Position numbers and translations under genes: made by a program
Shown: positions 16,759-47,325 of the stretch, in pieces
Numbering within the stretch: position 1 is the stretch's first letter
Layout: every line of letters begins with the position of its first letter
Source: Lepidodermella squamata
Lineage: Eukaryota > Animalia > Gastrotricha
Assembly (NCBI GenBank): GCA_047495785.1
Contig: JBLDXI010000014.1
Coordinates: forward strand, 652,653 to 716,652
Reading direction: 5' to 3'
Length of the DNA stretch: 64,000 bases
Notes under the pieces: generated by a model
The model's input: only the letters and a program-made list of their open reading frames with translations
The model's database searches: none
What the model was told of the DNA's origin: nothing

Positions 16759-18719
16759 TCATACGTCAGTCTGTACACAAGCAGTGCCCATCAATAGCCG
16801 TCCGCCGCCAGGGATCCTCACAATGTCCTCGGCCCGTATTGTAGATCGCGATCGGCGCTTGTTATTGCTATTGCTGGCGAAGTTACTGATGAATGATCCG
16901 TTCTTGCCGACTGGCTCTTTCTCGCCGCGGTTAAGCCGAGTTGCCGCGATATTTCCACCGAAGGCGGTGGCAAGCGAGGCGGATAGGGTATCCGGAGTGA
17001 AAGCGACGTTTATCGGTCCAACCGTTTGAAGAGGTGCCGATATTCTGCGGGAAGCTTCCGCGGAGGCTTGCTGCCGCGCCGCGCCGAAAATCGACGGAAA
17101 AGGCGATGAGTGATAGTCGATAGAGACTGAGGCCGTTCTCCGCTTCGGACCGAACCCGCGGTCTTGGTGCGTTTGTTCCTTGAAAAGTTTCAACGCGTAA
17201 TGCCACGCGAGTTGACGCGATTCGATGGAAACAGACTCCCCGTATGAGTTGACATTGGTAACAGATAGCAATTTTCGTTCTTTTAAAAGAGCCATCATCC
17301 ATTCGGCCTTATCCTCCTTCGATCTCGCCCTGAATGTTATGGATCGCACGATTTCCGGCACGTGGTCGGCAAAGACGTCGATTCGCCAGGCGTTACGCAA
17401 AACAGCTGTACCCGTACCATTTGAGGAAGCGCTCCCGTTCTGGCCGTTCACGGGCCCATCGATAAGCGGCACGATTCGACTGTTATCGAGATCTATCCGG
17501 CCTTTGAATACCAGCATACGAAGTGCAGTCTGTTAATAAAACATTAGGACACAATTATCACTAATTATTTGTTTACTATTACTCGTTTGCAATATATTAG
17601 CTGGTGATCGAAAACGAAGCAATCTCGTTCAGCTGCTCGGCCATTTGGCTTAACTTCATGTAGCGCGCCGGAGAAAATGAACCTTGTACTCCTCTCCAAC
17701 AAATTCGGACCCTGTAATTAACACAGACGAGTTGCAGCTAGTGAAAAACAAGAAAATTGAGCTAATCACCTCCCATCGGTCGACAGCCAGCTGCCAGAGA
17801 GCGAGCCGCTCGAGAGATTCTTGTTGACGACGGCGTTCGTTGATAATAGTAGCTACTCGTTGCATCAAAGTAGCAGCCGCTGCCGTCTAATAAAATTAGC
17901 ATAATAAATTGGGTCAAGAGCAGCGATATGGGCGAGCAAACAAACCTCGGCTCGATGCGGGTGGTCTTCGGGCGTGGCTTTCAGCAGTTCGCCGAGAAGC
18001 AGCTGATATTGGCATATTCGCTGGACCGGAGCGATGAGGAAACTTTGGAAGGGGACGGGCATAAGATTCTTTTGAACACGACAATCCTACAAAAATAAAC
18101 CGAATTCAATTTCGATTTGCAACATTTTTAAGGAGCTCACTTCGAAAAATTCACGATGAATATCGCTGGTGTTAGTAAGGCTGATGAACTCCAGCTCAGA
18201 CAGCGGTTCACTGATGCAGTAACCAGAGTAAATATCGAGGCCAAGGCTTGAATTTGTATTTGAAAGATAAAACAGCTCGCCAGTCGTTGAAATGTTGCCG
18301 CCGAACATTTGAAGAAAAACATGCGGAACTGGCGCCGTGTAACAATCGCCACTTGGCGGCAAACGCGTTGTGGCTTCGAGTTTCGCGAGGAAAGCTGCGC
18401 TGAACTCGGTGACGCGCTCCAGTTGTTCGAAAACGCGCGACGTCCACGATTTATCGAAGAGGTCTGGACGACGCTCGCAGGGCCTTACGTACGTCGATAG
18501 AGCCGTGTTAAGGTTGGAGGCGAAATTTCGTTCCGATCGAATAATCTCTTTGATGACGTTGACGCGTGTCGACCTGACTTTGGGTGACACTTCAGCGTCA
18601 TCAGCGGGCGAATGGCTTGACAACATTTGACGGCTACTCGAGCCGCTGGACGAGGTCGAACCACCGTCGGATGCGGCGAGGTGGTTGCTGTTATCGTCGG
18701 ACAGATTCGAGGTGCTCAT
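16759..18719 (-). CDS. Dbl-family Rho GEF (DH-PH), ARHGEF4/9/SPATA13-like, multi-exon
   Basis: DH motifs R.NVIKEII.SERNF and FLIAPVQRICQYQLLLGELLKATP.DHP, then INERRR..ESLERLA.WQ..V..WEG, followed by a PH domain. Confidence 0.8.
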
Positions 18720-19859
18720 GCGTGGGCGTGAGTGGCGATACGGTGTCTGTTGTTGCTGGTAATTATCGGCCGGGTTGCAACTGGCCTTATTGGCAATAAC
18801 CGTAAAATTCGGACGATGGCTGATGTTACGATGATTGTTCAGTTGTTTCTAGACGTAAAGAAAACAGCAACAACAATAAATAAAAAATAACAAAAATCTG
18901 CCCCTATAGGCATAAATCGCTAGCTAATAACCGATAGATCAGATATCGCCTGTCCGAATGTGAAACGTAATACAGCAGCCCACAACCGGCTATAAAACCG
19001 ACCGGGCAGTTGGTGATTACTAAATATGCGAATCGCTACGTTGCATAATGTTATATCGAAAAACTGGATGATTTTATTATAGTTGGTAGTCGCTTATATC
19101 TGCTGTCGACAAAACTACTACAAACAAGCGCGCTTCTGCATATCATCTCGCTCTTGGGCATTTAGTAGCCGCTTGCGCACACGATCAGCATTTTTACGAT
19201 ATTATGTTATCATACGGTGGTGCCTTAGCGGTGTGGCCTATCACTTATTGGGATATAGGAAACGCATACATATTAACATATTTTTCAAGCGGGCCCTATG
19301 TTTAAATCGCGCTGCGATCAATCGACATGACCGGCGAGCGTGCCGTTTTAGCCGTTTTTGTCTTTTCCCGACAAAAACCAGAATACACAAATAAGAAATG
19401 AAAAACGTTGATAGCGTCAAACAATGAAAGATAAAAATTAACATTACATCGCCACAACATAATACCATGTTGGATAATGCGACAAACACGCACACGAAAT
19501 GCATATATATATATCGGCTTGATTTTTGACGCTGGTATACAATTTCATAATTGCATTATTAGCGCGAGAAAAACCGAACTCCCAACAACAAGCGCGAATT
19601 ATTTGCGTATTATTATTTTATATATACGCAACGAGAATTTTCCGAATACAAGGCGAAGACAATGAGTTGATGCGCGTAGCGAATGAAAATAATAACAACG
19701 TGTTTGAACATCAGTTGTTGGTGTTACTCTATACTTATTGGATTTTTTTTGCGTCCATGTGGCGGGGGTTAATGTAATATTTTTGAGCGCCGAACGAACC
19801 GAGGCGCATTTATATTTGCTGTTACTGAAATAATATTAGTAGTAAGGATGGGAACTTTG

Positions 19860-20024
19860 GATCAGTAATAGCAGTACGGCGATTTTTACTATAGCCGTTT
19901 GGTATAAATATACGCAATTTGCGATCAGTAATGGCAGTACGGCGATTTTTACTATACCCGTTTGGTATAAATATACGCAATTTGGGGATGAGTAATAGCA
20001 GTACGGCGATTTGTACTATAGCCG
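19860..20024 (+). repeat. Subterminal tandem repeat, ~63-64-bp unit x ~2.6 (mirror copy ~31931-32095)
   Basis: Units GATCAGTAATAGCAGTACGGCGATTTTTACTATAGCCG... start at 19860, 19923 and 19987. Confidence 0.9.
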
Positions 20025-20290
20025 CTTCTTGTCAATATACCTTCGTTTTAACCCACTGCTATGATTTCACCTAACTAAAATAAACAAATCTTCGTTTTTT
20101 CACCTGTTATGAGCTAAACTAATCATTTTTACACTGCTTCTTTAGTGCAGCTGCAATAGAGCCCTTTTTCATTCACACAAACACTTTTTATTAGTCTTAA
20201 CGTTTCAAGCAATGAATTTATAGCTGGGATAAGTCTTATCAGTTTTTCTATTCATTTGTTCAGAGATTTGTAGCGGCTTGATTGGAGGGG

Positions 20291-20794
20291 TTAACGTCCA
20301 GATGAACCGAATCCGTTATCGCCACGGGTCGAATTTGCTGCTAGAGCGTTTTTCAATGGCCCCGTTACCGTTACTGCAGATTCTAAGCGACCATATTTTA
20401 AACACACCAACTGGGTAATACGGTCGCCTATTTTAATCTTGTAAGGTGTTTTGCTGTTGTTTGCAAGGCAGACTACGATTTTTCCGGTGTAGTCGGCGTC
20501 TTTAATTCATGAAAAATACAGATATTCATTAGTAATTTTCATTATTATTTGCTTCTTACCTATTACTCCAGCGACCGTATCGATTCCATGGTTGATGCTC
20601 ATTCCTGATCGACTGAATAGTTGTCCATAATATCCTCGTGGTAAACAGATTTTAATATCAGTTTGAATCAGTCCCCTGGTTCCAGGTTGCAGTGTCGTCT
20701 CTTCTGCTGAATAGATGTCCCAACCCACAGAGCCTTTAGTATGCTTTGTCGGTTCTTTAGCTTTGTTACTTGTTAGCTCTACCTTCAGCTTCAT
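20291..20794 (-). CDS. dut: dUTPase (element-borne, left-arm copy), 1 intron
   Basis: Mirror of 31161-31664, with motifs GWDIYS, SRSG, AGVID.DY.G, GDRITQL and RG..GFGSSG. Confidence 0.9.
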
Positions 20795-21228
20795 ATTTTA
20801 TAATTTATATTGTTACTGAGGTTCGATTTTTATGTGAGCGGCTACCTCCTTTCAGGCATATTGTTTTTGTAATTCAATCTTCCTTAAAAATGCATTAGGG
20901 CCTTTAGCTCTGTTGACCCCTCAGTGCTGGCTTTAATGCTTTTCATCAAAGATTCTTGGTATTGTATACATCCTCCTTAATTGCTGTCGGTAATTCAATA
21001 AGAAAACATCATGTCAATAAATCTTATACATCCTCCCTAATTAAACAATGCGATTTTTTACTTATCAAAATAAAAAGCAATTAGGATTTTTTACCCTTTA
21101 CGGTGTAATTACCTTAAACAATTCAAACAAAACATCTCCCTGTTTTTTCCTTTTATGGAAATATCACTCAGACTATTTAAGAGAGATGCTTCAAGAATAC
21201 ACTTAGCATATTTCTTGAAGCAAGCTGG

Positions 21229-21993
21229 ATGCATCCTAAAGTCTACCATTTCGGCATAGTCGGCAACATTGGGGCGTAAGTCTCATATACTCCACCGAAT
21301 AGAATTCTATTTAAAGTCTCTTGTTTTAGCGGGAAATCAACCTTAATCGAGGGTCTCACTAATCTACCTTCACTCAACCGTAAACTTCAGGGATATACCG
21401 CGTGGCCAATTTGCGAGCCTGTTCATCGTTGGGAGTCCTTTACTGATGACGATAAAACTAACATTTTGAAAGATTACTATCAGATGAAAAATGCGTTCAA
21501 CTTTCAAATTGTAGCCACGAGTGATATGTGCGGCCTTTATTCAGCCCCTAACCACAAACCTGAAATCTACGGGGCGCATACTATCGTTCTGCATGATCGA
21601 ACGCCCTTCTGTTCTAAAAACGTCTTTATCCCATGTGCGTATGCATCCAAGCGCATAAATTCTATCGAATATCACGCTCTCATGAATTTGTATGATAATT
21701 TCGAGCCGAATTTTGTAAAAACTGAAGCTATTATTTACTTGCGCTCCTCTCCCCAAATAGCTTGTCAAAGAGCCGTAGCTAGAGCTCGGGGTTCTGAAAT
21801 GCTATTATCACTGGATTATTTACGCCTCGTACATGAGTTTCATGAAAAAATGTGTACTGTTGAGACTACAAACAAATCCCTACCATGTCCCGTGCTTGTT
21901 ATCGACACTGATAATTTGAATGCCTCTGAGGTTCTAAAGCAAGCTTCTCAGTATGTTGCCTCTCTTATCACGCCTGTAATCTCTCAGACTTGA
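21229..21993 (+). CDS. Deoxynucleoside kinase (dNK/TK2-like; left-arm copy), 1 intron
   Basis: Removing intron 21276-21329 gives the P-loop GNIGAGKST. Also EPV..W, N.L..YY, AFNFQ, HDRT, IIYLR..P..C..R...RAR..E and YL..VH..HE. Confidence 0.9.
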
Positions 21994-22003
21994 ATCCTCA
22001 TTG

Positions 22004-22366
22004 ATGGATCCAACAAGACTTGTGCTCTCGAACAGCCAGATTTTAGACGCTGAATCTTTGCAATGTCCAATTTGTTTATCTATCCTACTTAATCCTATTC
22101 AAACGCGCCCCTGTGGCCATTTATTTTGTACTAAATGTGTTCTCGCTATTTTTCAAAATTCAGCTCGAACAGTATGTTGCTGTCCACTTTGCCGCGAATC
22201 ATTAACAGGGAAAGATTTCGTTAAACCCCCTGTAATTTTATCGAACATTATCTCGAATTTGATTTACAAATGCCAATATTCTGATAAAGGCTGTCCCATT
22301 ACTCTAACTTATGACCTCATTTTTGGGCATGAAAAGTTATGCCAATATAAAGAACCCATCCCTTAA
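22004..22366 (+). CDS. C3HC4 RING finger plus TRAF-like zinc finger protein (left-arm copy)
   Basis: CPICLS...PCGHLFC..C...CPLCR, followed by C.Y...GC......L..HE..C.Y. Confidence 0.85.
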   Translation: MDPTRLVLSNSQILDAESLQCPICLSILLNPIQTRPCGHLFCTKCVLAIFQNSARTVCCCPLCRESLTGKDFVKPPVILSNIISNLIYKCQYSDKGCPITLTYDLIFGHEKLCQYKEPIP

Positions 22367-22408
22367 AGTTTTACATTCTTATTTCATTAGATTTAATTTT
22401 CAATAATC

Positions 22409-22928
22409 ATGGCTGAGGCGATAGTAGAATCTGCTAACCAGACAGTCAATCATCACATGTCTAGTAACTTGGTCATTCAACAGCATCCTCAGGATTCTAA
22501 TCTCATCTACATAATGACTGATCGCAAAGATAAGAACGATAAGCCTAAAAAACTCGCCTTTAGACAAGACGAATTTCTTAGCCAGTTCGTTCCTTATTTT
22601 CGACCGCCGAATGATGCTTGGGTTGCTCAGGACACATCTCGTGAGAGTTCACAACACAGGCTTTAAATTTTCGATGCATGAATGCAAAATTGAAGTCTGT
22701 GTCTTTGTGCCATCATTTTCACCGATTCTTATAGATATACGCAGGTTTTATCTGGATGCTAAAGGTATTTACTTCAAATTTACAGTAATAGCAATCTTTT
22801 TATGATTTAACTTTTTAGGAAATAAACAACCCTCAAGACAAGGAGTCTCTCTTGATGCAGCTCAGTTTCAAGACCTTGCAACTGGGGTGTTAACTGTTGC
22901 AGCGATGATTGAAACAGCCAATGAATAA
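22409..22928 (+). pseudogene. PC4/Sub1-like ssDNA-binding protein, left-arm copy frameshifted
   Basis: Mirror of 29025-29546, but a 17-nt block (22632-22648) replaces 19 nt and causes a stop at 22666. Confidence 0.75.
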
Positions 22929-23045
22929 GCTAACACAAAACTTGACTAAAATGACTTACTGAATATTTATTTCAATCTATCCTTGTAATAAAGTTTTACC
23001 TCTTCCCAAATTCGATCAATTTTAAATTTTTAATCTTAGATTGTT

Positions 23046-25738
23046 ATGGATAACTATAGTTTACAATACTCATTTATTCGAAGTAATCGCCTGATTCATT
23101 CTACAAAATTCAAAATGTTTTCTGTGGAGTACTTCATTCAGCCCGTAACATCCGACTTTGCCTCAACCTACATCAACAGATATGGCCAATCTTCTAGTTC
23201 GCTTGGGCCGATGATTCAATTGTCTGGTGGCGCTGATGAACCTCGACTGGATAATATTCGATCATTTGTGCAGAACGTACCAGCCGACCAGGTGGCTAAT
23301 ATTGATTTGGAGACCCGCTTCAATATTCTGGCCAACTTCCTGTTCGATATTGTTGTAAATATCCATCGTGATTTACCTGTGAATTCCTTCTGCCGGCTAA
23401 CACTGTACCACCCCGACTTGAAGATGCCTCTTAGCCTACCCTTCATGAAACGCGATCGGTTGCTGGAAATTTCAATTTTGATCAACTGAGAAAAATATTA
23501 CAGAGTAATGAAGAACTCTCATTTGCTGGTCGGTGGACAATTCGTCTCTGTGTCATTGATAACCCCAATGCAGATCTAGGTCAAATTGTTGGTGGTTCTC
23601 GGGCAGAGCGGGCTATAAACGAAACTTTGGACAAATTTTTTCTTCGCTCCAAATCGATCGTTAGAATCGGAGCGCGCAAGAATGAAACGAACAATCTTTG
23701 CATGGGCAGAGCTCTCATCACTGGAGTGGCTTTGGCTCACATGAAGGCGAATCCTACGGATCCATCTCTTCAAGCAACCTTCAAATCGATACGTAGTACG
23801 CGAACCAATCGTCAATTTCGCGAAGCCACGGCGCTATATCAGAAAGCGGGCTTACCTCTCAACCTTCCAGCCTACAATCTAGATGATCATTACTCAGCCC
23901 TGTGTTCGGCTATCGATCCTGAACATAATACTTACAGATTCGTAGTATACTCGTACGAATCACAGGATGTTATTAGGGAAATCCCAGAATTTGATCATCG
24001 CGTAAGCCTTGGGTTGCTTCCTGTTGTTCTACTGGTTTATCGCAACGACGTCTCTCAGCCCAACAGTCATCATTTTCATGTCATTGCGAATCTCAACTTT
24101 ATGAAGGCCACTCTTAGCAATGCACAACGAATATGCCCCACTTGCTTTCAGACGAAAACGAGTACGGCTGTGCACAGATGCAAGTTGGCATGCTCTTCCT
24201 GCCGTAATTTTTACATGAAAAACCTGAATTTCACTTCTTTTATCATTAATATTATTTTAGGTGTATCAGGGAGCATTTGCCGTGTGATTTCCAACACAGA
24301 CCAACAAAACTACACGCGGTGTCCGCAATGTCGTGCAGGTCTGATGTTTTTAACCTTTTCATTATTATTCAGCTCTTTTTATGTTTTTAGTTTTGTATAG
24401 CGAACGTTGTAAGCAAAACCACAAATGTGCTAAAAAGAATCCATGCTTTAAATGCGGGAGGAAATTTGTACATTTTCTCAAGCATGAGGCTATGTGTCCC
24501 GGGCGGCGCTGTCACATTTGTCAGGAGCCTTTGAAAGCCAGCGACGAAGAAAATGGCACACACTTCTGCTTCATGACTCCCTTGGTATACTCATTTTTTT
24601 CAGTCCAGCTTTTTTCAAAATACTGTGGTTGGTGTATTTTTAGCCCTTGAAACCGGCGAATAAACTGGAACGTTATCGTAACCTAGTTTTTTGGGACACT
24701 GAGACATTTTCGCCATCACTTGCTGATAACAACAATGAGTTCCAAGTATGCCTTATCGTTGCAAAGGTCGTATGCATACCTCACTGCATCGAAGCGAGGA
24801 TTCAGCGATGCCATTCTAGTTGTGGACTTCATATTTTTTATGGAAGTCGTCCTCTGGAGGATTTCGTAAACTGGGTGCTTCTACCTATGAATTACCAGTC
24901 GATTTATTTGGCTCACAACTCAGCCAATTTCGATTCCTTATTATTACTGAAAGAAATTCAAACACGATGTTCTAAAGTGAAGATTCTTCAAAGGCAGGGA
25001 TCTCTACTATGCATTGATTTCAAACAACAAAAAATCAGATTTTTGGATTCATATCTCTTTTTTCAATGCAGATTAAGGTAGGTTACCTAAGAAACACTAA
25101 GAAACTACATTGCTTACAGGTATTTGTTCAACAACAGGGATTTACCAGCAACAATGGGAATCCCAGACAAGAAAACCTTCTTTCCTTACGTCTTATGCAC
25201 TAAAGAAAAGTAAGTACATCATCAACTTCTTGAGCTATTGTGATTGAATTCGCTGTAATCCTTCGAGTTTCAATCTCGAATTCCCACAGCTGCCTAATAT
25301 GATCTACTATGAGCCTGACAAAATGTCTCCTTCTGAAAGAGCAGAATTTCTAACTTTCTACAACGAAAACAAACTGAAACGGTTCAGTGTTCGCCACACG
25401 TTACTGCAATACTGCATACAGGATTGTCTAGTTTTGGAAAAGGCGTCAATCAAATTTCGGGCGCTAATGCTGGAGTTGTGTTCTACTGATGCCTTTAAAG
25501 AATGCATCACACTAGCTTCTCTCACAAGCACATGCTTCCGCAAGCTGTTTCTTACGAAGGATACATTACCTGTCATCCCGACCGCTGGCTACTGTGGCAA
25601 GGATTCACACAGCAGGCTCTCGATAGCTTTTCTTCAATTTCTGATGGAGTCTGACCCTGAAACTTATGGTTCAATGAAACACGCTCAGAACTCACGTCAA
25701 GAAGTTCGAATATCTATACCTGGCCACCGTTATCCTTA
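23046..25738 (+). pseudogene. Protein-primed family B DNA polymerase, left-arm copy; frameshifted and truncated
   Basis: T4 instead of T5 at 23476-23479. Introns at 24204-24260, 24339-24390, 24585-24643, 25078-25137 and 25210-25267. The copy ends at the fold-back point. Confidence 0.85.
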
Positions 25739-28700
25739 CAAATTTGAGCAATCTTTTCCAAATTTTGGTCGCCTGAAGTTGAGTGTGATTCGGCAATCAT
25801 AGCCATTAAACGAAAAGCTTCGACCCGCCCTAAAAAGTAGGCATGATGTTTTAATCCCGCGAAGATTAAATAGGGAAAACCTCCAGTTACCTCCAAAGAA
25901 AAACGAACGGCTCTCCATTACATTAGCTATTGTGAGATTATCATAAATCTCCTGTGCTCTCGGGTGTTGTTTGAAACTAGCTCTAATTTCATGCTCCCAA
26001 AAGCTTTGAAGAATGTAACCATTCGAGCGAAACAACTCTTCACGTTCCAAGGTTTGCTTGTAAACTACGCCGTTTGGTTGTCCAGATAGAAAATTTAGTT
26101 GTGAGGCCTCAAAGCATTGCAAGCAGCCATGGACAGCACAACCATGAACCTCGACAATCAGATCGGGTTCACTCGGAATTTTATCACGACGTGCAACAAA
26201 ACCGTCGACGCGATAAGGATAACGGTGGCCAGGTATAGATATTCGAACTTCTTGACGTGAGTTCTGAGCGTGTTTCATTGAACCATAAGTTTCAGGGTCA
26301 GACTCCATCAGAAATTGAAGAAAAGCTATCGAGAGCCTGCTGTGTGAATCCTTGCCACAGTAGCCAGCGGTCGGGATGACAGGTAATGTATCCTTCGTAA
26401 GAAACAGCTTGCGGAAGCATGTGCTTGTGAGAGAAGCTAGTGTGATGCATTCTTTAAAGGCATCAGTAGAACACAACTCCAGCATTAGCGCCCGAAATTT
26501 GATTGACGCCTTTTCCAAAACTAGACAATCCTGTATGCAGTATTGCAGTAACGTGTGGCGAACACTGAACCGTTTCAGTTTGTTTTCGTTGTAGAAAGTT
26601 AGAAATTCTGCTCTTTCAGAAGGAGACATTTTGTCAGGCTCATAGTAGATCATATTAGGCAGCTGTGGGAATTCGAGATTGAAACTCGAAGGATTACAGC
26701 GAATTCAATCACAATAGCTCAAGAAGTTGATGATGTACTTACTTTTCTTTAGTGCATAAGACGTAAGGAAAGAAGGTTTTCTTGTCTGGGATTCCCATTG
26801 TTGCTGGTAAATCCCTGTTGTTGAACAAATACCTGTAAGCAATGTAGTTTCTTAGTGTTTCTTAGGTAACCTACCTTAATCTGCATTGAAAAAAGAGATA
26901 TGAATCCAAAAATCTGATTTTTTGTTGTTTGAAATCAATGCATAGTAGAGATCCCTGCCTTTGAAGAATCTTCACTTTAGAACATCGTGTTTGAATTTCT
27001 TTCAGTAATAATAAGGAATCGAAATTGGCTGAGTTGTGAGCCAAATAAATCGACTGGTAATTCATAGGTAGAAGCACCCAGTTTACGAAATCCTCCAGAG
27101 GACGACTTCCATAAAAAATATGAAGTCCACAACTAGAATGGCATCGCTGAATCCTCGCTTCGATGCAGTGAGGTATGCATACGACCTTTGCAACGATAAG
27201 GCATACTTGGAACTCATTGTTGTTATCAGCAAGTGATGGCGAAAATGTCTCAGTGTCCCAAAAAACTAGGTTACGATAACGTTCCAGTTTATTCGCCGGT
27301 TTCAAGGGCTAAAAATACACCAACCACAGTATTTTGAAAAAAGCTGGACTGAAAAAAATGAGTATACCAAGGGAGTCATGAAGCAGAAGTGTGTGCCATT
27401 TTCTTCGTCGCTGGCTTTCAAAGGCTCCTGACAAATGTGACAGCGCCGCCCGGGACACATAGCCTCATGCTTGAGAAAATGTACAAATTTCCTCCCGCAT
27501 TTAAAGCATGGATTCTTTTTAGCACATTTGTGGTTTTGCTTACAACGTTCGCTATACAAAACTAAAAACATAAAAAGAGCTGAATAATAATGAAAAGGTT
27601 AAAAACATCAGACCTGCACGACATTGCGGACACCGCGTGTAGTTTTGTTGGTCTGTGTTGGAAATCACACGGCAAATGCTCCCTGATACACCTAAAATAA
27701 TATTAATGATAAAAGAAGTGAAATTCAGGTTTTTCATGTAAAAATTACGGCAGGAAGAGCATGCCAACTTGCATCTGTGCACAGCCGTACTCGTTTTCGT
27801 CTGAAAGCAAGTGGGGCATATTCGTTGTGCATTGCTAAGAGTGGCCTTCATAAAGTTGAGATTCGCAATGACATGAAAATGATGACTGTTGGGCTGAGAG
27901 ACGTCGTTGCGATAAACCAGTAGAACAACAGGAAGCAACCCAAGGCTTACGCGATGATCAAATTCTGGGATTTCCCTAATAACATCCTGTGATTCGTACG
28001 AGTATACTACGAATCTGTAAGTATTATGTTCAGGATCGATAGCCGAACACAGGGCTGAGTAATGATCATCTAGATTGTAGGCTGGAAGGTTGAGAGGTAA
28101 GCCCGCTTTCTGATATAGCGCCGTGGCTTCGCGAAATTGACGATTGGTTCGCGTACTACGTATCGATTTGAAGGTTGCTTGAAGAGATGGATCCGTAGGA
28201 TTCGCCTTCATGTGAGCCAAAGCCACTCCAGTGATGAGAGCTCTGCCCATGCAAAGATTGTTCGTTTCATTCTTGCGCGCTCCGATTCTAACGATCGATT
28301 TGGAGCGAAGAAAAAATTTGTCCAAAGTTTCGTTTATAGCCCGCTCTGCCCGAGAACCACCAACAATTTGACCTAGATCTGCATTGGGGTTATCAATGAC
28401 ACAGAGACGAATTGTCCACCGACCAGCAAATGAGAGTTCTTCATTACTCTGTAATATTTTTCTCAGTTGATCAAAAATTGAAATTTCCAGCAACCGATCG
28501 CGTTTCATGAAGGGTAGGCTAAGAGGCATCTTCAAGTCGGGGTGGTACAGTGTTAGCCGGCAGAAGGAATTCACAGGTAAATCACGATGGATATTTACAA
28601 CAATATCGAACAGGAAGTTGGCCAGAATATTGAAGCGGGTCTCCAAATCAATATTAGCCACCTGGTCGGCTGGTACGTTCTGCACAAATGATCGAATATT

Positions 28701-28907
28701 ATCCAGTCGAGGTTCATCAGCGCCACCAGACAATTGAATCATCGGCCCAAGCGAACTAGAAGATTGGCCATATCTGTTGATGTAGGTTGAGGCAAAGTCG
28801 GATGTTACGGGCTGAATGAAGTACTCCACAGAAAACATTTTGAATTTTGTAGAATGAATCAGGCGATTACTTCGAATAAATGAGTATTGTAAACTATAGT
28901 TATCCAT
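25739..28907 (-). pseudogene. Protein-primed family B DNA polymerase (pPolB), right-arm copy; open after splicing but truncated before motif A
   Basis: N-terminal NNLCMGRALI, Cys/His clusters, ExoI FWDTET, ExoII LAHNSANFD, FLDSY, K.FFPY, ExoIII YCIQDCLVL and TLAS. Then an endonuclease-like insert (RVDGF..EVHGCAVHGC..C..WEHE) and FFGG/RVE across intron 25830-25890. No DxxSLYP or YxDTDS motif. Confidence 0.9.
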
Positions 28908-29024
28908 AACAATCTAAGATTAAAAATTTAAAATTGATCGAATTTGGGAAGAGGTAAAACTTTATTACAAGGATAGATTGAAATAAATATTCAGTAAGTC
29001 ATTTTAGTCAAGTTTTGTGTTAGC

Positions 29025-29546
29025 TTATTCATTGGCTGTTTCAATCATCGCTGCAACAGTTAACACCCCAGTTGCAAGGTCTTGAAACTGAGCTGCATCA
29101 AGAGAGACTCCTTGTCTTGAGGGTTGTTTATTTCCTAAAAAGTTAAATCATAAAAAGATTGCTATTACTGTAAATTTGAAGTAAATACCTTTAGCATCCA
29201 GATAAAACCTGCGTATATCTATAAGAATCGGTGAAAATGATGGCACAAAGACACAGACTTCAATTTTGCATTCATGCATCGAAAATTTAAAGCCTGTGTT
29301 GTGAGATAGCAGGGCAAGTTGAGCCTGAGCAACCCAAGCATCATTCGGCGGTCGAAAATAAGGAACGAACTGGCTAAGAAATTCGTCTTGTCTAAAGGCG
29401 AGTTTTTTAGGCTTATCGTTCTTATCTTTGCGATCAGTCATTATGTAGATGAGATTAGAATCCTGAGGATGCTGTTGAATGACCAAGTTACTAGACATGT
29501 GATGATTGACTGTCTGGTTAGCAGATTCTACTATCGCCTCAGCCAT
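29025..29546 (-). CDS. PC4/Sub1-like ssDNA-binding domain protein (right-arm copy, intact), 1 intron
   Basis: Removing intron 29135-29188 gives LIDIRRFYLDAKGNKQPSRQGVSLDAAQFQDL, matching the PC4 core IDIR.....G...P.RKGISL...Q...L. Confidence 0.8.
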
Positions 29547-29588
29547 GATTATTGAAAATTAAATCTAATGAAATAAGAATGTAAAACT

Positions 29589-29951
29589 TTAAGGGATGGG
29601 TTCTTTATATTGGCATAACTTTTCATGCCCAAAAATGAGGTCATAAGTTAGAGTAATGGGACAGCCTTTATCAGAATATTGGCATTTGTAAATCAAATTC
29701 GAGATAATGTTCGATAAAATTACAGGGGGTTTAACGAAATCTTTCCCTGTTAATGATTCGCGGCAAAGTGGACAGCAACATACTGTTCGAGCTGAATTTT
29801 GAAAAATAGCGAGAACACATTTAGTACAAAATAAATGGCCACAGGGGCGCGTTTGAATAGGATTAAGTAGGATAGATAAACAAATTGGACATTGCAAAGA
29901 TTCAGCGTCTAAAATCTGGCTGTTCGAGAGCACAAGTCTTGTTGGATCCAT
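29589..29951 (-). CDS. C3HC4 RING finger plus TRAF-like zinc finger protein (right-arm copy)
   Basis: Translation identical to the left-arm copy. Confidence 0.85.
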   Translation of the reverse strand: MDPTRLVLSNSQILDAESLQCPICLSILLNPIQTRPCGHLFCTKCVLAIFQNSARTVCCCPLCRESLTGKDFVKPPVILSNIISNLIYKCQYSDKGCPITLTYDLIFGHEKLCQYKEPIP

Positions 29952-29961
29952 CAATGAGGAT

Positions 29962-30726
29962 TCAAGTCTGAGAGATTACAGGCGTGATAAGAGAGGCAAC
30001 ATACTGAGAAGCTTGCTTTAGAACCTCAGAGGCATTCAAATTATCAGTGTCGATAACAAGCACGGGACATGGTAGGGATTTGTTTGTAGTCTCAACAGTA
30101 CACATTTTTTCATGAAACTCATGTACGAGGCGTAAATAATCCAGTGATAATAGCATTTCAGAACCCCGAGCTCTAGCTACGGCTCTTTGACAAGCTATTT
30201 GGGGAGAGGAGCGCAAGTAAATAATAGCTTCAGTTTTTACAAAATTCGGCTCGAAATTATCATACAAATTCATGAGAGCGTGATATTCGATAGAATTTAT
30301 GCGCTTGGATGCATACGCACATGGGATAAAGACGTTTTTAGAACAGAAGGGCGTTCGATCATGCAGAACGATAGTATGCGCCCCGTAGATTTCAGGTTTG
30401 TGGTTAGGGGCTGAATAAAGGCCGCACATATCACTCGTGGCTACAATTTGAAAGTTGAACGCATTTTTCATCTGATAGTAATCTTTCAAAATGTTAGTTT
30501 TATCGTCATCAGTAAAGGACTCCCAACGATGAACAGGCTCGCAAATTGGCCACGCGGTATATCCCTGAAGTTTACGGTTGAGTGAAGGTAGATTAGTGAG
30601 ACCCTCGATTAAGGTTGATTTCCCGCTAAAACAAGAGACTTTAAATAGAATTCTATTCGGTGGAGTATATGAGACTTACGCCCCAATGTTGCCGACTATG
30701 CCGAAATGGTAGACTTTAGGATGCAT
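29962..30726 (-). CDS. Deoxynucleoside kinase (right-arm copy), 1 intron
   Basis: Mirror of 21229-21993. Confidence 0.9.
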
Positions 30727-31160
30727 CCAGCTTGCTTCAAGAAATATGCTAAGTGTATTCTTGAAGCATCTCTCTTAAATAGTCTGAGTGATATTTCCAT
30801 AAAAGGAAAAAACAGGGAGATGTTTTGTTTGAATTGTTTAAGGTAATTACACCGTAAAGGGTAAAAAATCCTAATTGCTTTTTATTTTGATAAGTAAAAA
30901 ATCGCATTGTTTAATTAGGGAGGATGTATAAGATTTATTGACATGATGTTTTCTTATTGAATTACCGACAGCAATTAAGGAGGATGTATACAATACCAAG
31001 AATCTTTGATGAAAAGCATTAAAGCCAGCACTGAGGGGTCAACAGAGCTAAAGGCCCTAATGCATTTTTAAGGAAGATTGAATTACAAAAACAATATGCC
31101 TGAAAGGAGGTAGCCGCTCACATAAAAATCGAACCTCAGTAACAATATAAATTATAAAAT

Positions 31161-31664
31161 ATGAAGCTGAAGGTAGAGCTAACAAGTAACAAAGCTAAAG
31201 AACCGACAAAGCATACTAAAGGCTCTGTGGGTTGGGACATCTATTCAGCAGAAGAGACGACACTGCAACCTGGAACCAGGGGACTGATTCAAACTGATAT
31301 TAAAATCTGTTTACCACGAGGATATTATGGACAACTATTCAGTCGATCAGGAATGAGCATCAACCATGGAATCGATACGGTCGCTGGAGTAATAGGTAAG
31401 AAGCAAATAATAATGAAAATTACTAATGAATATCTGTATTTTTCATGAATTAAAGACGCCGACTACACCGGAAAAATCGTAGTCTGCCTTGCAAACAACA
31501 GCAAAACACCTTACAAGATTAAAATAGGCGACCGTATTACCCAGTTGGTGTGTTTAAAATATGGTCGCTTAGAATCTGCAGTAACGGTAACGGGGCCATT
31601 GAAAAACGCTCTAGCAGCAAATTCGACCCGTGGCGATAACGGATTCGGTTCATCTGGACGTTAA
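31161..31664 (+). CDS. dut: dUTPase (right-arm copy), 1 intron
   Basis: Intron 31396-31455 joins AGVI-D-ADYTGKI. The gene ends STRGDNGFGSSGR-stop, so all five dUTPase motifs are present. Confidence 0.92.
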
Positions 31665-32117
31665 CCCCTCCAATCAAGCCGCTACAAATCTCTGAACAAA
31701 TGAATAGAAAAACTGATAAGACTTATCCCAGCTATAAATTCATTGCTTGAAACGTTAAGACTAATAAAAAGTGTTTGTGTGAATGAAAAAGGGCTCTATT
31801 GCAGCTGCACTAAAGAAGCAGTGTAAAAATGATTAGTTTAGCTCATAACAGGTGAAAAAACGAAGATTTGTTTATTTTAGTTAGGTGAAATCATAGCAGT
31901 GGGTTAAAACGAAGGTATATTGACAAGAAGCGGCTATAGTACAAATCGCCGTACTGCTATTACTCATCCCCAAATTGCGTATATTTATACCAAACGGGTA
32001 TAGTAAAAATCGCCGTACTGCCATTACTGATCGCAAATTGCGTATATTTATACCAAACGGCTATAGTAAAAATCGCCGTACTGCTATTACTGATCCAAAG
32101 TTCCCATCCTTACTACT

Positions 32118-34672
32118 GCAACCGCCAGGTCATTGAATACATCAGGCAGACTGTTGCCCCATGCCAGAAACGTCAAACCAAGCAAACTTTCACTCAATCC
32201 TAAGGCGAGTCCGAAGAACTGAATCAGATTAACAACTTCGTTCGCGAACAAGTAAATCCACATTGCAGTTGTTATGAAACCAAGTACAGCAAATGCCTTG
32301 AGATAAATTCATAATAATAAAAAGTGAAATCGATAGGTATCAAACCATGTGGTATTTAGGCCGTTCGGTATTCTTAGAAGTGAAGAACACTACACCAGCA
32401 AGAAGAAGACCAACGTAGCCGAGGATAAATGTCACAGGGAACACCTCGCCTATAAGCAAATCGAGTTCTGGAACAGAGAAAAATCAACAGGTTTGCTTCA
32501 TTCTATAAGACATTTTTACCGTGTAAAGCGAACATGATGAATACTGGAGCTAGAACAAGATGTGCACAATTCAGGGGCCGGTTCCAGTTTTTCATGCGCT
32601 TCTCATCATCCACCACCGGAGTGCAGAGAAAGACGAGGAAAACAATAGGAGCCTTGATGATTTGCATAGCCTTCGAAAACTTGTTTTGAACCTTCCAATC
32701 TTCGTGCTGGATAGGGTCAAGCCCAGTCAAAATCCAACGCCAAATGGGCATTTCTTCGACAATTTCATTGCCGTCGCTCGACACTGATTCTTTTTCAGTA
32801 GCCGTATTTACAGTTTCATCTTGGGGTTCAGGAGTAACACTGACTTCTTGCAGCTCGTGGCTTTCCTGGGCAAGTGAAGGTTTCGGCGAGGCAGATCGGC
32901 GACTCGAGCGACGGCTCGATTCGCTGGTCTGACGCCGTCGTCTTTGCCGAACTTCGAATTCGGCAGAATCCGCCCCATCGTCTTCATCGGAGGAGGAGGA
33001 AGATTCTAGAACAGACCTGATCCAAGTTGCTTCCCCCGGCTGCTGCTGAACAGATGTGTTGCTAGATTTTCGCTTGATACTCTCACGAAGACGCCCGATC
33101 TGCAGCCTAGCGCCCTGTTCTATGTACATACGGGCAACCCTCGACAACCCAGCTAGTTCTTCGGGATTCTCCAAGATTTGCATGTTCCTTTCAAGTTCTT
33201 GTGCAGTTGGTAGTCCTTGCGAGTAGGTCCGCAAAATTGCAGCATTCCGTGAAGCTGCAGCTGCCCGTTCTTTTAAGTAGGTAACTGTTGTCACGTCTAG
33301 ACTGGTAGCTCGTCTCCCATCAACCCTATTGTCTGCAATGGACGGCCGAGGTAGATCAACCCAGGAAACCTTGGACCGTGGCTCATTTCCTTCCGAGCGT
33401 CTTGTCTCCTCTGTCTTTACTACCGTAGCTGGTTCCTCTGCTGTGAAGCTTTTCTCATCACTTGGCGTAGGCGGCTCGACGACGATTGAAACTTTAGTGT
33501 CTTGAGGTTGAATTTCAGGAGGTGGATGTTCGGTGGAAGCAGGCTTCTTCTTTAATTTCCGCTTATTTGACCAATCAATCAGCCAACCATTGACTTTAGG
33601 GCCGAGGATAACGCTAGCAAGGTAGACTGCGTATAAAACTAGAAAGACCAGAGCCTCAGGAATTTCGAAAATGCTATCCCAAACAACAGCGTAGGCTATA
33701 AATTGAAAGAGTGACAAATCCTACTTAATAGATTTTTTTAAATCATACCGCTGAAAACAGCGAGCATGTAGAATATCAATACGCGCAGCAGGGGCCGTTG
33801 CATCGTTCGAAAGGGTTTAACCATAATGATAAGGCCGGCAATGACGGTGGTTGTGAAAGCTCCTGAGCCGAGTAGGGTGCCATACAATACGGAAATATCG
33901 CCATCACGCAATGAGATCGCGGCTGCGATTGAGGTAAAAATGTCTGCAGCTCCATTGCCGAGAGGCAGCAAAGTTTCGCCCTATTAATATCGGTTCAGAG
34001 GCTGGTACAGTCGATATAACTAGCACTTACGGCGACATTTTCACTGTGATAGGATAATCAGAGATTAAAGATAACTCTGTAATGTAAAATGTATACCTGA
34101 GGTGTAAAGCGTTAGCGATGGCTGATAAATTTGGAATGAATCTAAAATTTGTTGGGATAATTTTTACCACGGCCTTTATCAATTGTTGAACTCACACTCG
34201 ATCCGAGGTGACAGTGATTGCTAAAAGCAGAAAGACAAACCAAATCGCCTATATAGCGCAGAGTAATTAGCGGATTTTATAGAATATCCAAGGGATTTGC
34301 TCACATTTAGGATGTACCCAATTGGCCTCAAAACAGGGCCTTGAAAGTTGCAATAGAGGTCTTCGATATAGTTTATATAGCCGCTCTCAATGCCACAGTT
34401 TGGATTGGTCTACAAGGAATGTCAATTTAATGCAGAACAAGATAAGAATTTAAGTTGAAGAAAACCTGGGCAAAGCAACATTGCTCCGCAGAATCTTCGA
34501 TTTTGTGAATATCTTGACAGCTTCTATCCTGAATAATTCAATCAAGAAGTTATTCAAATCCCTTCTGTTCACTCACGTCTTGAGCAAGAGTTGGTGAAAA
34601 CAAGAACGAAAGCGATAAAATTACTGTAATGGAAATAAAGCTATTTTTGCGCTGTTTACTCTTTAGGCGCAT
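32118..34672 (-). pseudogene. NCLX/CCX-type (SLC8B1-like) cation/Ca2+ exchanger, multi-exon, 3'-truncated by the element
   Basis: Alpha-1 repeat GETLLPLGNGAADIFTSIAA, LLGSGAFTTTVIAG and PVVD....NWNRPLN. Alpha-2 repeat LLGLTFLAWGNSLPDVFNDLAV runs directly into the TIR at 32117. Confidence 0.85.
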
Positions 34673-35790: not shown

Positions 35791-38700
35791 ATGAAACGCA
35801 TTTGTGATCACGTCTTGACTGCTGTCTTAACGGTAGCAAATTTTTACGTAATCGCAACTGTTGCTCAACGGACATGCCAACTGCCGAAAATCGAGAACAG
35901 CGAATACCTGGTTGTCAACCGGCCGGTGGGTCTGGCCGACCCAGTTGGACCAGACGCGTCTTTCGCTGTGGAAGGGTCGACTCTTGAAGTTTCTTGCGCC
36001 GAAGGTTTTGGCATAGAAATCGAGAGACGCCAGTACAAAACTGTTCAAACGTCAACCTGTTTACCTGGTGGAAGATGGGAGCCTGAACTCGTCGACTGCG
36101 AAGAAAAGACTAACGAAGCGCCGCAGCGACCGATCTCATCTCTGGACGGCGGCGGGAAAGGCCCTGCTAACCCAGCCATTGTCATGTGCACTATGCCAAC
36201 CATCCCCCAGGGTGCTCAATTTGTGATCAACGACGGAGTAATCCGAGGGCCTGAATTCAGTGGCAAAAAGGTCTCAATGGAAACTGCAGTGACAATTAAA
36301 TGTCCAACCGGTTACTCAATAGCAGGTGGAAGCTCGACAGGAGTTTGCGTATCCTCGAGGCAATGGAGGCCTTTACTGGGCGAGTGTAAGCCTGGGTCCG
36401 ATGCCTCGAATTCGGCGGCAGTGACTCGACCCACCGGAATGATGTGCACTATCCCGCCTTTGATAAACGGGACTAAGCTGGTGATCAACGATGCGGCGAT
36501 TAGAGGAGCTGAGTTCGGAGGTCGGAGGCTTCAAGTTGAGACTTCGATTACAATTCAATGTCCTGTCGGCTATGACATCACTAACGGAAGCGAATCCGGC
36601 GTATGTATGTCGAATGGGAGCTGGAAACCAAGAGTCGGGCAATGCACCCAAATAATGTCTCTACCTGCAATTTCTGTAGCTCAAACTGACGTCCCAAAGA
36701 ACTGCGGACCCACTCCTGTGATTAACGGCGGAACTTTGGGATCTGGCTCAACGGAAATCGGCTCAGTTCGTCGAATTACCTGCACAGCTGGGGGTCGAGT
36801 TCAATCTGGTGTTGATTTCATAGTTTGCTTGAATAACGGATCATGGACTCAGCCTAGCCCTTGCGTACCGAGTTCCGTAACTACTGGAAGACCTACTACA
36901 CTAGCTCAAGCTGCAGTGAAATGTCCCTTACCACCTATCTTCTTGTTTGAACTGGGAAATTTCGCAGTTACCGAAGCTGAGTATGCATCGGCTGATACAA
37001 ATGTCGGTGCTACTCGAGTTTTGAATTGCAAACCGGGCTATAGAATCGATGGCTCTAATAGGGTAACTTGTCAGCAAAATGGCCAATGGACAATGCCTGG
37101 AATGTGTGTTCCGGGTGATTCAGCGCCTCCTACAACGACTGCGAGAGTAACCCAAGCTAGAACAACACTAGCAGTTACTTCAAAGCCTTCGGCACCATTG
37201 GACAGTGGAATAAAATGCCCTCTGCCACCTTTGATTCTTTTCCAACTCGGAAATTTCGCTGTTACTCAACAGGAGTATGATACCGTCGACAACAGTGTTG
37301 GGGCATCTAAAGAGCTGACATGCAAACCTGGATACCGAATCTCCGGCCCTTCTAAAGTTACTTGTCAACCTAATGGAGAGTGGACCATGCCTGGGTTGTG
37401 TGTGGAAATCCCTGCTACGACCACTCGAAGACCGGCTTCTGATGTCGTAACATGCCCCCTACCAACCAAATACCAGCTCGACATGGCTAACTATGTGATG
37501 AGTGATGAGGATTACGATTCGGCAAACATCACAGTTGGCGCGACGAGAACATTGGTCTGTAAGCCTGGTTACCAACTGTCCGGAAATGCTACCCTGAGAT
37601 GCCAGCCGAATAGGGAGTGGAGTATAGGTGGTGCTTGTGTAGCTGTCACGACCACACAATCTTCAGGTCCTACCAGCTGCCCATTGCCGCCGAAATTTTT
37701 GTTTGACCTGGGCAATTTTGCTGTTACTGATGAGGAGTACGCGAATGCAGATAACAAAATAGGAGCCACGCGTGATCTGGTTTGCAAACCTGGGTACCAA
37801 GTTAACGGACCTTCTCGGGTTACTTGCCAACGAAACGGCGAATGGACTATGCCGGGTATGTGTGTCCCAGCCGCAACGACCAGTGCGCCGAAAGTCACCT
37901 GTCCCCTGCCTTCAAAAGCTCAATTTCAACTGGGGAATTACGCAGTTACAGACTCTGAGTATGCTACGGCTAACACAAGTGTCGGGGCAATGCGGGAACT
38001 CAAATGCCGCCCGGGTTTCCAATTAATCGGCCCAACTCGAACTACCTGTCAACAGAACGGCGAATGGTCTGTACCTGGGGCTTGCCTCCCAGCGCCAACA
38101 ACATTGGGTCAGCCTATAGCTCAAGCCCAAGTTTCGACCAACTTACCTAATGGAACCCAGATTTCAAGTTCAACAGCTACTACTGTTAGTAGAGCTGTAG
38201 TTACATCGACCACTTCCGCCACTGTGATAATCAAATGCCCTCTTCCTCCTATGGCTTTGCTCGACGCGGGTGGTTACCTAATGACTGAGGCTGAATATTC
38301 GTCAGCAAACACTTCAGTTGGCGCCACTCGGGTTATCAATTGTAAGCCTGGTTATCAATTGGTTGGTTCCAGCGTTATGACTTGCCAACAAAACGGAGAG
38401 TGGACTACGTCAGGGCTATGCATGCTGGCGTCAACCTCAACGGTATTTTTTCGAGTTTTTTTCAATTTTGGTTGAGTGGAAATTTTGATGTCTTAGGTTA
38501 GTACAACCTCTACAACATCAGCCGTGAAATTTGCTGCTTGCATGTCTCCTCCAGTGCCTCTCATCACGAGGCTCGGTTTCGAATTATCGCCATCAGACCG
38601 GGGCCGGAAAGATTATGCTGTTGGCGATACAATCGTCTTGACTTGTCTACCAAACTTACCGCAACTAACTGGCCCCAACGTAATTGCTTGCAAGCCTGAC

Positions 38701-38850
38701 GGGCAGTGGACAATCGCCGGAAGATGCATTCGCGGTGAAGCATCCGTAGCAAGAAATTCCTCATCAGCTGCTACAACAATCGCGACAACAATGGTAATAG
38801 TCCTGGCCGTAATTATTGCCTTGTTATCCAACGGAGCTAATTGGCACTAA
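35791..38850 (+). CDS. Sushi/CCP-repeat surface protein (~11 CCP domains, S/T-rich linkers), short isoform with C-terminal hydrophobic anchor
   Basis: Signal peptide and repeated C-P..P...C.PG(Y/F)...G....C..NG.W.....C. A phase-0 intron at 38443-38496 leads to a terminal exon with one CCP and a hydrophobic tail. Confidence 0.8.
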
Positions 38851-38994
38851 AGACACTCCATCCTATATTTATTCGTGTTACGTCACTCTAAATCAAACAT
38901 CCCGTTGATTTGATTTATCTCATTGGATAACGCAAGGCAATAATTTACGTGCGAAATAAAATTGAACCTCGACTATTAATTGTCTTTTTAACAG

Positions 38995-41900
38995 CCTATA
39001 ACTACGAATTTGACTGCTAAGGAAACAAATTCAACGAGCAAGTGTCAACTGCCACCTCCATTCGCGTTTGAAATGTATAATTTTGCTGTGTCAGCCGCTG
39101 ATTTGGCTGCCGTAAATTCGAGCGTTGGGGCTAGCTGGCAGCCTAAATGTAAACCGGGTTTCATCATTTCAGGGCCCTCTAATGTGACCTGTTTACCTAA
39201 CGGCGAATGGACCAAGAGTGGGGAGTGTGTTCGAGCAACCACCCCAGGCTTTGTCGCCTTCACCTTCAACTCGACATCAGCTCCAGTTACGACTACAACA
39301 ACCACTAAACCAGCTGTTCAGTGCATTCTACCTCCGTTTATCTTGTTTGAGCTAGGAAACTTCGATGTTACGGAGGAAGATTACGAAACAGCCAACACCT
39401 CAGTCGGGGCATCAAGAGAGCTGCAGTGCCTTCCAGGGTTCCAAATTGTCGGCCCGTCTGTGGTAAGATGTCAACCGAATGGAGAATGGACGTTGCCCGG
39501 GCTTTGTGTTCCAGCTACAGAAACAACTTCTCGAGTCTCGCAGTCTTCGTCGACATCAAAGGCTGCTACCCCTAGATCGTCCTCCATTTCAACTACTACG
39601 AAGGCACCTGTGCTTTGTCCAGTCCCTCCAAAATCCGTGTTCGAATTTGCTAATTTTCTGATAACGGACGCAGATTACAACAGTTTTAACAACTCTGTAG
39701 GGGCGACTAAGGAGCTGAAATGTAAACCTGGATTTCAAGTGAATGGGCCCCCGAGAGTGGTTTGTCAACAGAATGGGCAGTGGACCATGCCGGGTATGTG
39801 TAGCGCGATATCTCAAACAACGCCATCTGCGGCTACATCTGCGGCTACATCTGCGGCTAGAACCAGTACTTCTTGGACCACAGTACCTCAGCCGAAGATT
39901 TTGAACTGCACTTTACCTCCTAAATTCCTGTTTGACATGGGTAACTTCGCGGTTACTGATGCTGAATATGCATCTGCAAACACGAGCATCGGAGCGATAA
40001 AAACACTGAACTGCAAGCCGGGATTTCAGATAATGGGACCATCTAGCGTAACATGCCAAGCGAATGGTGAGTGGACGATGCCCGGAATGTGCGTGCAGGG
40101 TTCGGAGACATCTCCTAGAGTCACACAGCTGTCTTCCACTTCAACCATCAAACTTGCAGTTACAACAGCTGGATTAACCTCGACTGTGACCACTATAAAG
40201 CCGCTCGTTCTGTGTCCAGTTCCTCCGAAATCAATGTTCGACTTTGCTAATTTTGAAATGTCAGACGCAGAGTATAAAACTTTAAATAACTCTGTTGGAG
40301 CGACCAAAGAATTGAAATGCCGACAAGGATTTCAAGCCAATGGTCCTTCGAGAGTCGTGTGCCAACCGAATGGTCAGTGGACCATGCCAGGAATGTGTAC
40401 TGCAGTCCCGCCTACAACGATAGCTGCAGTAACAACCGCAATACCTAGAACCAGCACTGCAATACCAAAGATAATGAATTGCACGCTTCCTCCGAAATTC
40501 CTATTTGACCTGGGTAATTTTGCGGTAACTGACGCTGAGTATGTATCCGCAAACACTAGTATCGGAGCAACAAAATATCTGGCATGTAAACCGGGTTTCC
40601 AGATTATGGGTTCATCTGCGGTTACCTGCCAACCGAATGGTGAATGGACTATGCCTGGAATGTGTGTGGCGGCTCCTGAAGCTACAACATCTCGAGCCAC
40701 CGCATCAGCGTCAAAAATCACAAGCTGTCCATTGCCCCCGAAGTTCATGTTTGATCTCGGAAATTTCGCTGTGACTGATGCTGAATATGCCTCTTCGAAC
40801 ACCAGCATAGGGGCAACGAAAGTTCTCAGTTGTAAGCCCGGTTTCAAACTGATGGGGCAAGCTCAGGTAACGGTAACGTGCCAGCCAAATGGAGAATGGA
40901 CTATGCCAGGAATGTGTGTGGCCGCTGCTGAAGCTACAACACCTCGTGCCACCACACTACCACCAAGAATTACAAGCTGTCCGCTGCCTCCGAAATTCGT
41001 GTTTGATCTTGGAAATTTCGCTGTGACTGATGCCGAATATGCCGCTGCAAACACGAGCATTGGGGCGACTATAATGCTCACTTGTAAGCCCGGCTTTAGG
41101 CTGATGGGGCAGGCTCAGGTCACAGTAAAATGCCAACCAAATGGAGAATGGACTATGCCGCCTGGGTTTTGTGAACAATCTGATACAACCCAATCAGTCT
41201 CAGCTACAACGAAGGCCCCGGTTTTGTGCCGAGAGGTTCCTCGAGCCACGTTGGACGCATCCGGAGCTTCTTTGAGCCCCGAATCGTTGGCTAGTACAAA
41301 TTTTAGCGTCGGCGCAACGCGCATGCTGGTTTGCAGGACTGGATTTCAGATTTTAGGAGCCGCTAACTTGACTTGCCTCGCAACAGGCGAATGGTCTTCG
41401 CCCGGTATCTGCCGGCCGCTTGCTAGAACGATTCCTGCTACGACCACTTCCACAACTACTACTACTACAACTCAGAGAATTGCTATTGTGCCGTCTAATG
41501 ATTATAACATGATGCTGCATAGAGCGGCTGCTAGCGGGAATTCTAAGGAAGTCACGCGAATCTTAGGCCTTCGTTACAGCGGGGTTGCCTTCGACGTGGA
41601 TTGGCGAGACCCTATTCCCTTTAGTTCATGTCGAAACAACCGGACGATGACATTGGCTTCAGCACTTCATAAGGCAACAGCTTGTAATGCTAACATCGAC
41701 ATTGTCCGTCAGCTGGTTGAAGCTGGGGCGGATCGAAATTTCCAAGAAGCAACAAACGGCGATTCAGCACTGATGATGGCTGCGGAGAACGGGAATGTAC
41801 CTTCCTTACGATTGCTGCTGGAAAGTGGCGCAGAAATGGAGATGAAAAACATTGACGGCGAAACTGCGCTGATCTTCGCGGCTCGAAGTGGCAAATTCGA

Positions 41901-45423: not shown

Positions 45424-45508
45424 TTAATAAAATGAGAATTCCGCGACTCCGTTTGGTCAACACAATTTTTATTAAATTTCGAAACGCTCGTTTTATTAGC
45501 TTCGAAAG

Positions 45509-47249: not shown

Positions 47250-47325
47250 CTAAACATAACCTTAACCTTAACCCTGAGCACGAACCCTGAAACCTAACAC
47301 TAACCCCTAACCCCAATTCCTAATC
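47250..47325. repeat. Degenerate (TAACCC/TAACCT)n telomere-like tract
   Basis: CTAAACATAACCTTAACCTTAACCCTGAGC...CCTAACACTAACCCCTAACCCC. Confidence 0.5.

Follow-up and report, generated by a model that had tools for sequence, protein, structure and literature searches.

A stretch of 64,000 nucleotides from the gastrotrich Lepidodermella squamata (contig JBLDXI010000014.1, positions 652,653 to 716,652; hereafter the window, whose own numbering is used throughout) contains a 12.3-kb mirror-image element, in which two reverse-complement arms surround a 475-bp spacer. With about even confidence, we interpret it as 6.4 kb from the left end of a young, multi-copy Polinton-like element, to which its own first 5.9 kb is attached as an inverted copy. 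On this reading, which we judge evenly balanced against all others taken together, the fold-back copy is real and private, and either a deletion or recombination with a second copy brought it to two host sites. The unfolded parent of this element exists in public sequencing data as a multi-copy, nearly invariant and spliced Polinton-like family.

The palindrome and its unfolded parent

The two arms of 5901 and 5904 bp, the 475-bp spacer and the AGTAGT ends described in the original prediction were all confirmed in the sequence (Table 1). AGTAGT is read inward at both element ends, with an exact AGTAGT-host junction at each. The arms differ from each other at two places only. A 17-nt patch in the left arm (22632-22648) stands in place of 20 nt in the right arm (29305-29324), and there is a 1-nt length difference at 23475/28477. 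The exchange of 20 for 17 nt looks more like a repair scar than a read error. No second fold-back was found elsewhere in the 64-kb window and its long host open reading frames (ORFs) are uninterrupted, arguing that the assembly is not visibly chimera-ridden.

Four public sequencing runs (X1 to X4), none of them recorded as RNA, were considered. Two of them, X1 and X2, contain at least half of the sequence words; X3 matched 11 of 30 bins and X4 none of 30, and only the two splice joints shared by X3 were used. Contigs of the runs show presence only, and the runs need not derive from the animals of the assembly. One X1 contig follows the window unbroken from 25733 to 26493, through the arm end and the spacer, and then carries 431 further letters of other sequence. 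A spliced X2 contig of 4731 nt likewise continues beyond the fold. The parental contigs of both runs agree with the window as far as 25733, thus overlapping the left arm by six letters, and then run on differently. Among the long X1 and X2 pieces listed, not one letter differs from the right arm.

In X1 the element is covered 9.9 to 13.3 times as deeply as a flank contig, contig depth not being equivalent to copy number. The terminus (19838 / 32117) is joined by at least three other flanks in X1 and by one in X2, which indicates several insertions, and the difference in insertion sites between the samples argues that the family moved recently. Contigs leave the terminal repeat behind 19914 (X1) and 19977 (X2), with the same letters beyond, which suggests that the parent's own terminal inverted repeat (TIR) measures about 80 to 140 bp. 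The parent is provisionally placed among the Polintons by its protein-primed DNA polymerase gene (pPolB) and its end motif, its remaining part lying outside the sequence seen.

Two further observations were made on the X1 contigs. Along 19958-26493, depth declines more or less evenly, with values of 2186 close to the terminus and 1637 at the spacer (flank, 164.9); contig depth is a rough measure, and truncated copies, end-primed replication intermediates or library bias may each produce such a slope. Another contig matches only the first 33 bp of the terminus (19870 / 32085) and then diverges. It may belong to a related family, or to a short non-autonomous element that shares this end.

Genes and introns of the element

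Each arm had been predicted to carry genes for a dUTPase, a deoxynucleoside kinase (dNK), a RING protein and PC4 as well as the 5′ part of pPolB. This holds for the right arm, where the PC4 assignment is weak. Its left-arm counterpart has premature stops in the PC4-like and pPolB frames, leaving 85 codons against 155 and 147 against 948, respectively. Pfam matches were obtained for the two dUTPase exons (9e-15 and 5e-10), dNK (1e-21) and the RING finger (4e-7). Exon 1 of the PC4-like gene gave no PC4 match in Pfam, and the sole Pfam match of exon 2 is below the cut-off (E = 0.33).

The pPolB gene of the right arm encodes the exonuclease and an endonuclease-like insert and stops about 30 codons past its last intron, ahead of motif A. 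Pfam DNA_pol_B_2 was matched on two segments (6e-6 and 3e-7), and 1972 relatives were found at E <= 0.001, the best among the matches listed having 25 to 41% identity. Exonuclease motifs I to III were found in both arms, and polymerase motifs A, B and C in none of the six frames of the element. Of 151 relatives, 107 have motif A behind the GGR motif, at a median distance of 22 residues, and 57 have motif C, at a median distance of 456 residues from GGR. Judging by this spacing, roughly the catalytic third of pPolB is missing from the element. A scan of 10 element segments yielded no Pfam match to an integrase, a packaging ATPase, a protease or a major or minor capsid protein. The original prediction was thus borne out as regards both these genes and the polymerase catalytic motifs. 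The element's own genes are insufficient for replication or integration.

Nine spliced GT-AG introns of 52 to 61 nt interrupt four genes, six of them in the 5′ part of pPolB (25830-31455; mirror, 20500-25267). X2 is spliced at all nine, and their removal leaves frames of 147, 236, 155 and 948 codons open in the right arm. These introns resemble the adjoining host introns (49 and 52 nt) in size. X2 contigs also have a poly(T) end and a sequence that we take to be a cDNA adaptor. Together with the splicing, these features argue that the family is transcribed. As for an introner origin, 4 of 55 intron pairs fell under p = 0.05, and none was clearly related except one AT-rich pair. In dinoflagellates, introners enter Polinton-like elements (from among PMC6431247, PMC8502044 and PMC12166617).

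Among the pairs compared, the first pPolB intron (27692-27748) and an intron of the host exchanger gene next to the element (32297-32345) gave a local alignment of 27 positions with a score of 17 (0 of 200 shuffles; 55 pairs tested; both AT-rich). X2 also contains an opposite-strand joint (23042-23133, depth 20.8) directly upstream of pPolB, probably a cDNA template-switch product.

Table 1. Features of the element and its flanks, in window coordinates
Feature	Position	Strand	Details
Left flank: start of host RhoGEF gene and its upstream DNA	18087..19837	-	Unrelated to right flank
Left arm	19838..25738	+	5901 bp; left-terminal 5.9 kb of Polinton-like element
AGTAGT terminus and three 63-bp subterminal repeats	19838..20042	+	Mirrored at 31913-32117
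Left-arm-specific 17-nt patch	22632..22648	n/a	Absent from right arm
Left-arm pPolB copy	23046..25738	+	Frame closes at 23487 after 147 codons
6-nt microhomology at fold	25733..25738	n/a	Inverse of 26214-26219
Spacer	25739..26213	-	475 bp; next stretch of the parent's pPolB gene, continuous with right arm
Right arm	26214..32117	-	5904 bp
pPolB, 5′ part	25714..28907	-	948 codons; 7 exons, 6 introns of 52-61 nt
PC4-like gene	29025..29546	-	155 codons; intron 29135-29188; left-arm copy 22409-22666
C3HC4 RING finger protein	29589..29951	-	120 aa; mirror 22004-22366
dNK	29962..30726	-	236 codons; one intron, 30626-30679; mirror 21229-21993
dUTPase	31161..31664	+	147 codons; one intron, 31396-31455; mirror 20291-20794 (-)
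Host Na/Ca-exchanger (NCLX-like) gene	32118..34466	-	Pfam Na_Ca_ex 1e-12; spliced in X2; coding exon cut by right end of element

Flanks of the element and origin of the fold

Polinton insertions usually leave a target-site duplication (TSD) of 5 to 8 bp (PMC10748475), in most cases of 6 bp. None of 18 lengths (2 to 19) gave a match between the flanks of the element, and the flanks showed no similarity to each other in either orientation (scores of 10 and 11, against 9 to 13 for shuffles). The 3′ end of the exchanger gene, whose coding exon is cut by the element, was not found anywhere in the 64-kb window. An X1 contig extends the cut exon in frame by at least 255 letters, and another extends the left flank by at least 255 letters of different sequence. 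The flanks thus run into different host DNA in X1, showing that host sequence is missing between them. The gap could be smaller than 1 kb or involve two chromosomes, as the two X1 contigs cannot be placed relative to each other. The lack of a TSD, the cut exon and the differing continuations of the flanks argue that the element is not a clean single insertion.

The original prediction overlooked these three features. It had proposed an integrated, mobile and helper-dependent genome, against which stand the absent TSD, flanks that do not close to one empty site, the missing end of the host gene and the parental contigs at the fold. The data agree no less well with the outcomes that it had itself named as a refutation, namely an artefact or a junction confined to this locus.

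Its proposal that one Polinton end was copied back by a template switch fared better, since the existence of the unfolded parent and the 6-nt microhomology at the fold fit such an event. For comparison, inverted 6-mer matches occur at 1779 of 5,247,423 position pairs 100 to 1000 nt apart. The fold breakpoints are only 475 bp apart in element coordinates, a distance that would favour an intramolecular fold over two independent breaks. In the one-off fold-back that we favour, a strand-displacing polymerase in the cell would switch template once at the microhomology inside the pPolB gene. The displaced 3′ end would re-prime nearby, giving an inverted join with a short spacer and complementarity of a few bases, as was shown in vitro for phi29 (PMC1855051). 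Either the element's pPolB or a repair polymerase of the host may be responsible. As pPolB and the phi29 polymerase are members of one protein-primed family, such a slip is possible in the cell or in the tube. Fixation between two separate host sites would then occur by deletion or recombination with a second copy; the candidate routes by which two ends came to lie at two sites are uncoupled integration of the ends, a deletion next to the element, or homologous recombination between one arm and a further copy. There are precedents for parts of this scheme, as fold-back inversions in yeast are mostly resolved by homology with repeats (PMC7467729), and a Caenorhabditis elegans locus has been rearranged by Polinton copies (PMC11414722). 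The fold likely formed in vivo, and there is no sign that the element has moved since its formation.

The contigs at the fold in both covering runs have the parental arrangement, and the first-bin depths of 1306.7 and 38.1 are those expected from the parental contig alone. Neither of the left-arm changes is present in X1, although a one-letter variant at 22149 was retained there at a depth of 73 of 5970. The absence of the fold from X1 and X2 contigs is a non-detection, not a proof, and gives no support to a widespread palindromic family.

Several points weigh against a real fold-back copy. No X1 or X2 contig bridges the fold, and none of those seen spans the whole structure. The one X1 left-flank allele aligned differs from the window by three letters and one 2-nt gap, so that X1 may come from another individual and cannot vouch for the haplotype. 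Local templating of the 17-nt patch is not significant, its longest match of 6 being reached by 35% of 5000 random 17-mers. A long, near-identical repeat without a TSD around it classically points to a mis-join. Finally, the commonest chimera of phi29 amplification has the geometry observed here, namely an inverted join with an intervening deletion between segments less than 10 kb apart, with 2 to 21 nt of complementarity (PMC1855051), and 406 of 475 chimeras formed in vitro by phi29 polymerase were inverted in the same source.

The foremost competing explanation is therefore an artefact, which we regard as possible and less probable than a real fold-back. A fold-back chimera, arising in one copy during amplification or sequencing, would have led the assembler to connect two ordinary copies from unrelated loci by their left ends; a weaker version accepts the fold as real and takes the pairing of the flanks for a mis-join. 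An artefact would agree with the absence of a TSD, with unrelated flanks that have different host continuations in X1, and with a junction whose geometry equals that of the commonest chimera of multiple displacement amplification (MDA; PMC1855051). Sequencing of microscopic animals after amplification is pervaded by palindromic reads (PMC13265396, PMC6218980), a family depth about 10 to 13 times that of the flank makes mis-joins possible, and the left-arm differences would just belong to the second copy. However, a plain fold-back read would mirror the flank as well. The flank is not mirrored, and two steps are therefore needed. The lack of a second fold-back in the window also speaks against this explanation.

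Unlikely, in our estimation, is a copy-back defective genome of an active, intron-rich animal polintovirus, present as a single fresh insertion. Its own polymerase would have made it at the 6-nt microhomology and a helper integrase would have inserted it, its ends would have come to lie at separate sites with deletion of the host gene end, and it would now transcribe a kilobase hairpin RNA able to initiate silencing of the family. Hairpin RNA produced by read-through is predicted for any real form of the element and is geometrically plausible, whereas silencing by dsRNA found no support in the data.

An origin without a fold-back is slightly more doubtful still. Two ordinary copies lying tail-to-tail on one chromosome would have been joined by microhomology-mediated repair, with deletion of their inner parts and of the intervening host DNA. 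A single event of this kind would account for the exact ends at two sites and the lack of a TSD, and likewise for the changes private to the left arm and the 6-nt microhomology. However, two independent breaks must fall within 475 bp, which by our own estimate happens by chance in a few percent of cases for an element of 13 to 25 kb, and the two copies must be neighbours.

Least probable is a copy-back defective genome for which the parental Polinton supplies replication and integration in trans. Such an element would spread as a parasite dependent on its helper and might silence the family by hairpin RNA. In its favour, both left termini are intact with their repeats, an expressed, multi-copy and nearly invariant parent is available as a helper, and both pPolB transcripts would head to the centre with their natural gene end missing. 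Against it, without a TSD this copy is not a clean integrase product, the X1 and X2 contigs that cross the fold region show the parental arrangement, and a single copy is known.

Neighbouring genes and relation to known systems

The host genes of the window include Cys-loop channel, sushi, RhoGEF and cystatin genes with short introns, from which the host would be judged to be an animal with a compact genome. Four segments hold host genes of microbial type (1034-2242, 10305-10835, 42578-43712 and 49537-50563): an isochorismatase-family hydrolase next to an allophanate-hydrolase C-terminal domain, NADAR, and duplicated phytochelatin synthases, the best named matches of which come from fungi, cyanobacteria and protists. 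Two sushi-repeat ORFs that are long and almost free of introns (35791-42285) encode 894 and 1070 aa, and the second of them has ankyrin-like repeats at its end. The regions 44182-60092 and 54322-63788 contain about seven clustered Cys-loop-channel-like genes, divergent and poor in introns, as well as several genes for secreted cystatin-like proteins.

A search by protein for relatives of the element among viral contigs gave five pattern matches, none of which was confirmed. The terminal pattern had no match in metagenomes and one in viral contigs, which was rejected as an 18-nt chance match without tblastx support. A word-indexed search returned two pPolB relatives and 27 cluster members. The literature searched held no description of palindromic or copy-back Polintons; its coverage was partial, and absence from print is not claimed.

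The element shares with animal-type Polintons, or Mavericks, the (AGT)2 end motif as found in vertebrate Mavericks (PMC8097293), a protein-primed PolB and multi-copy insertions. The usual elements measure 13 to 25 kb, have TIRs of 100 to 1500 bp and TSDs of 5 to 8 bp, and carry integrase, ATPase, protease and capsid genes (PMC10748475). In contrast, the element studied here has a 5.9-kb inverted repeat and no TSD, and none of these four kinds of genes was matched. It resembles a non-autonomous Polinton derivative but departs from one in its lack of a TSD, an integrase and a capsid. A zebrafish element of about 11 kb, Polinton-2N1_DR, is said to have been described by Kapitonov and Jurka in 2006 as a nearly whole palindrome of one parent end, forming a transposed family with TSDs; unlike it, the element here is a single copy without a TSD.

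Fold-back inversions in yeast (PMC7467729) similarly consist of an inverted duplication with a spacer, the new arm ending in a homologous repeat elsewhere. In contrast to them, the present inversion lies wholly within a mobile element, whose strand-displacing polymerase is a candidate cause. The inverted chimeras of phi29 polymerase and MDA share the inverted join, the intervening deletion, the short complementarity and the distance of less than 10 kb between segments (PMC1855051), whereas a single chimera would also mirror the flank, so that an extra assembly join is needed here. In copy-back or snap-back defective viral genomes, one terminus is likewise duplicated in inverted orientation and replication genes are lost; the literature found on these, as far as it was available, concerns RNA viruses or chromosomal palindromes, and helper-dependent replication is hypothetical for the present element.

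Polinton replication has so far been inferred mostly from gene content. If real, the fold-back, with its mapped microhomology and a living parent family alongside, would give direct evidence of template switching during strand displacement. It would also show how palindromic non-autonomous Polintons originate and provide a natural source of hairpin RNA for testing how a host silences a newly invading DNA virus. Should it prove to be a chimera, the lesson would be that both a TSD and spanning reads are required before a giant palindromic element is accepted.

The parent family itself differs from its vertebrate counterparts. Intact vertebrate Mavericks have no introns (PMC8097293), whereas nine spliced introns are present in the 6.4 kb of this family that was seen. 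Compared with those intronless elements, it is unusual for a multi-copy Polinton-like family to be transcribed, to have host-sized introns in four of its genes and to carry nucleotide-metabolism genes, and this intron-rich, transcribed parent is a more solid oddity than the palindrome.

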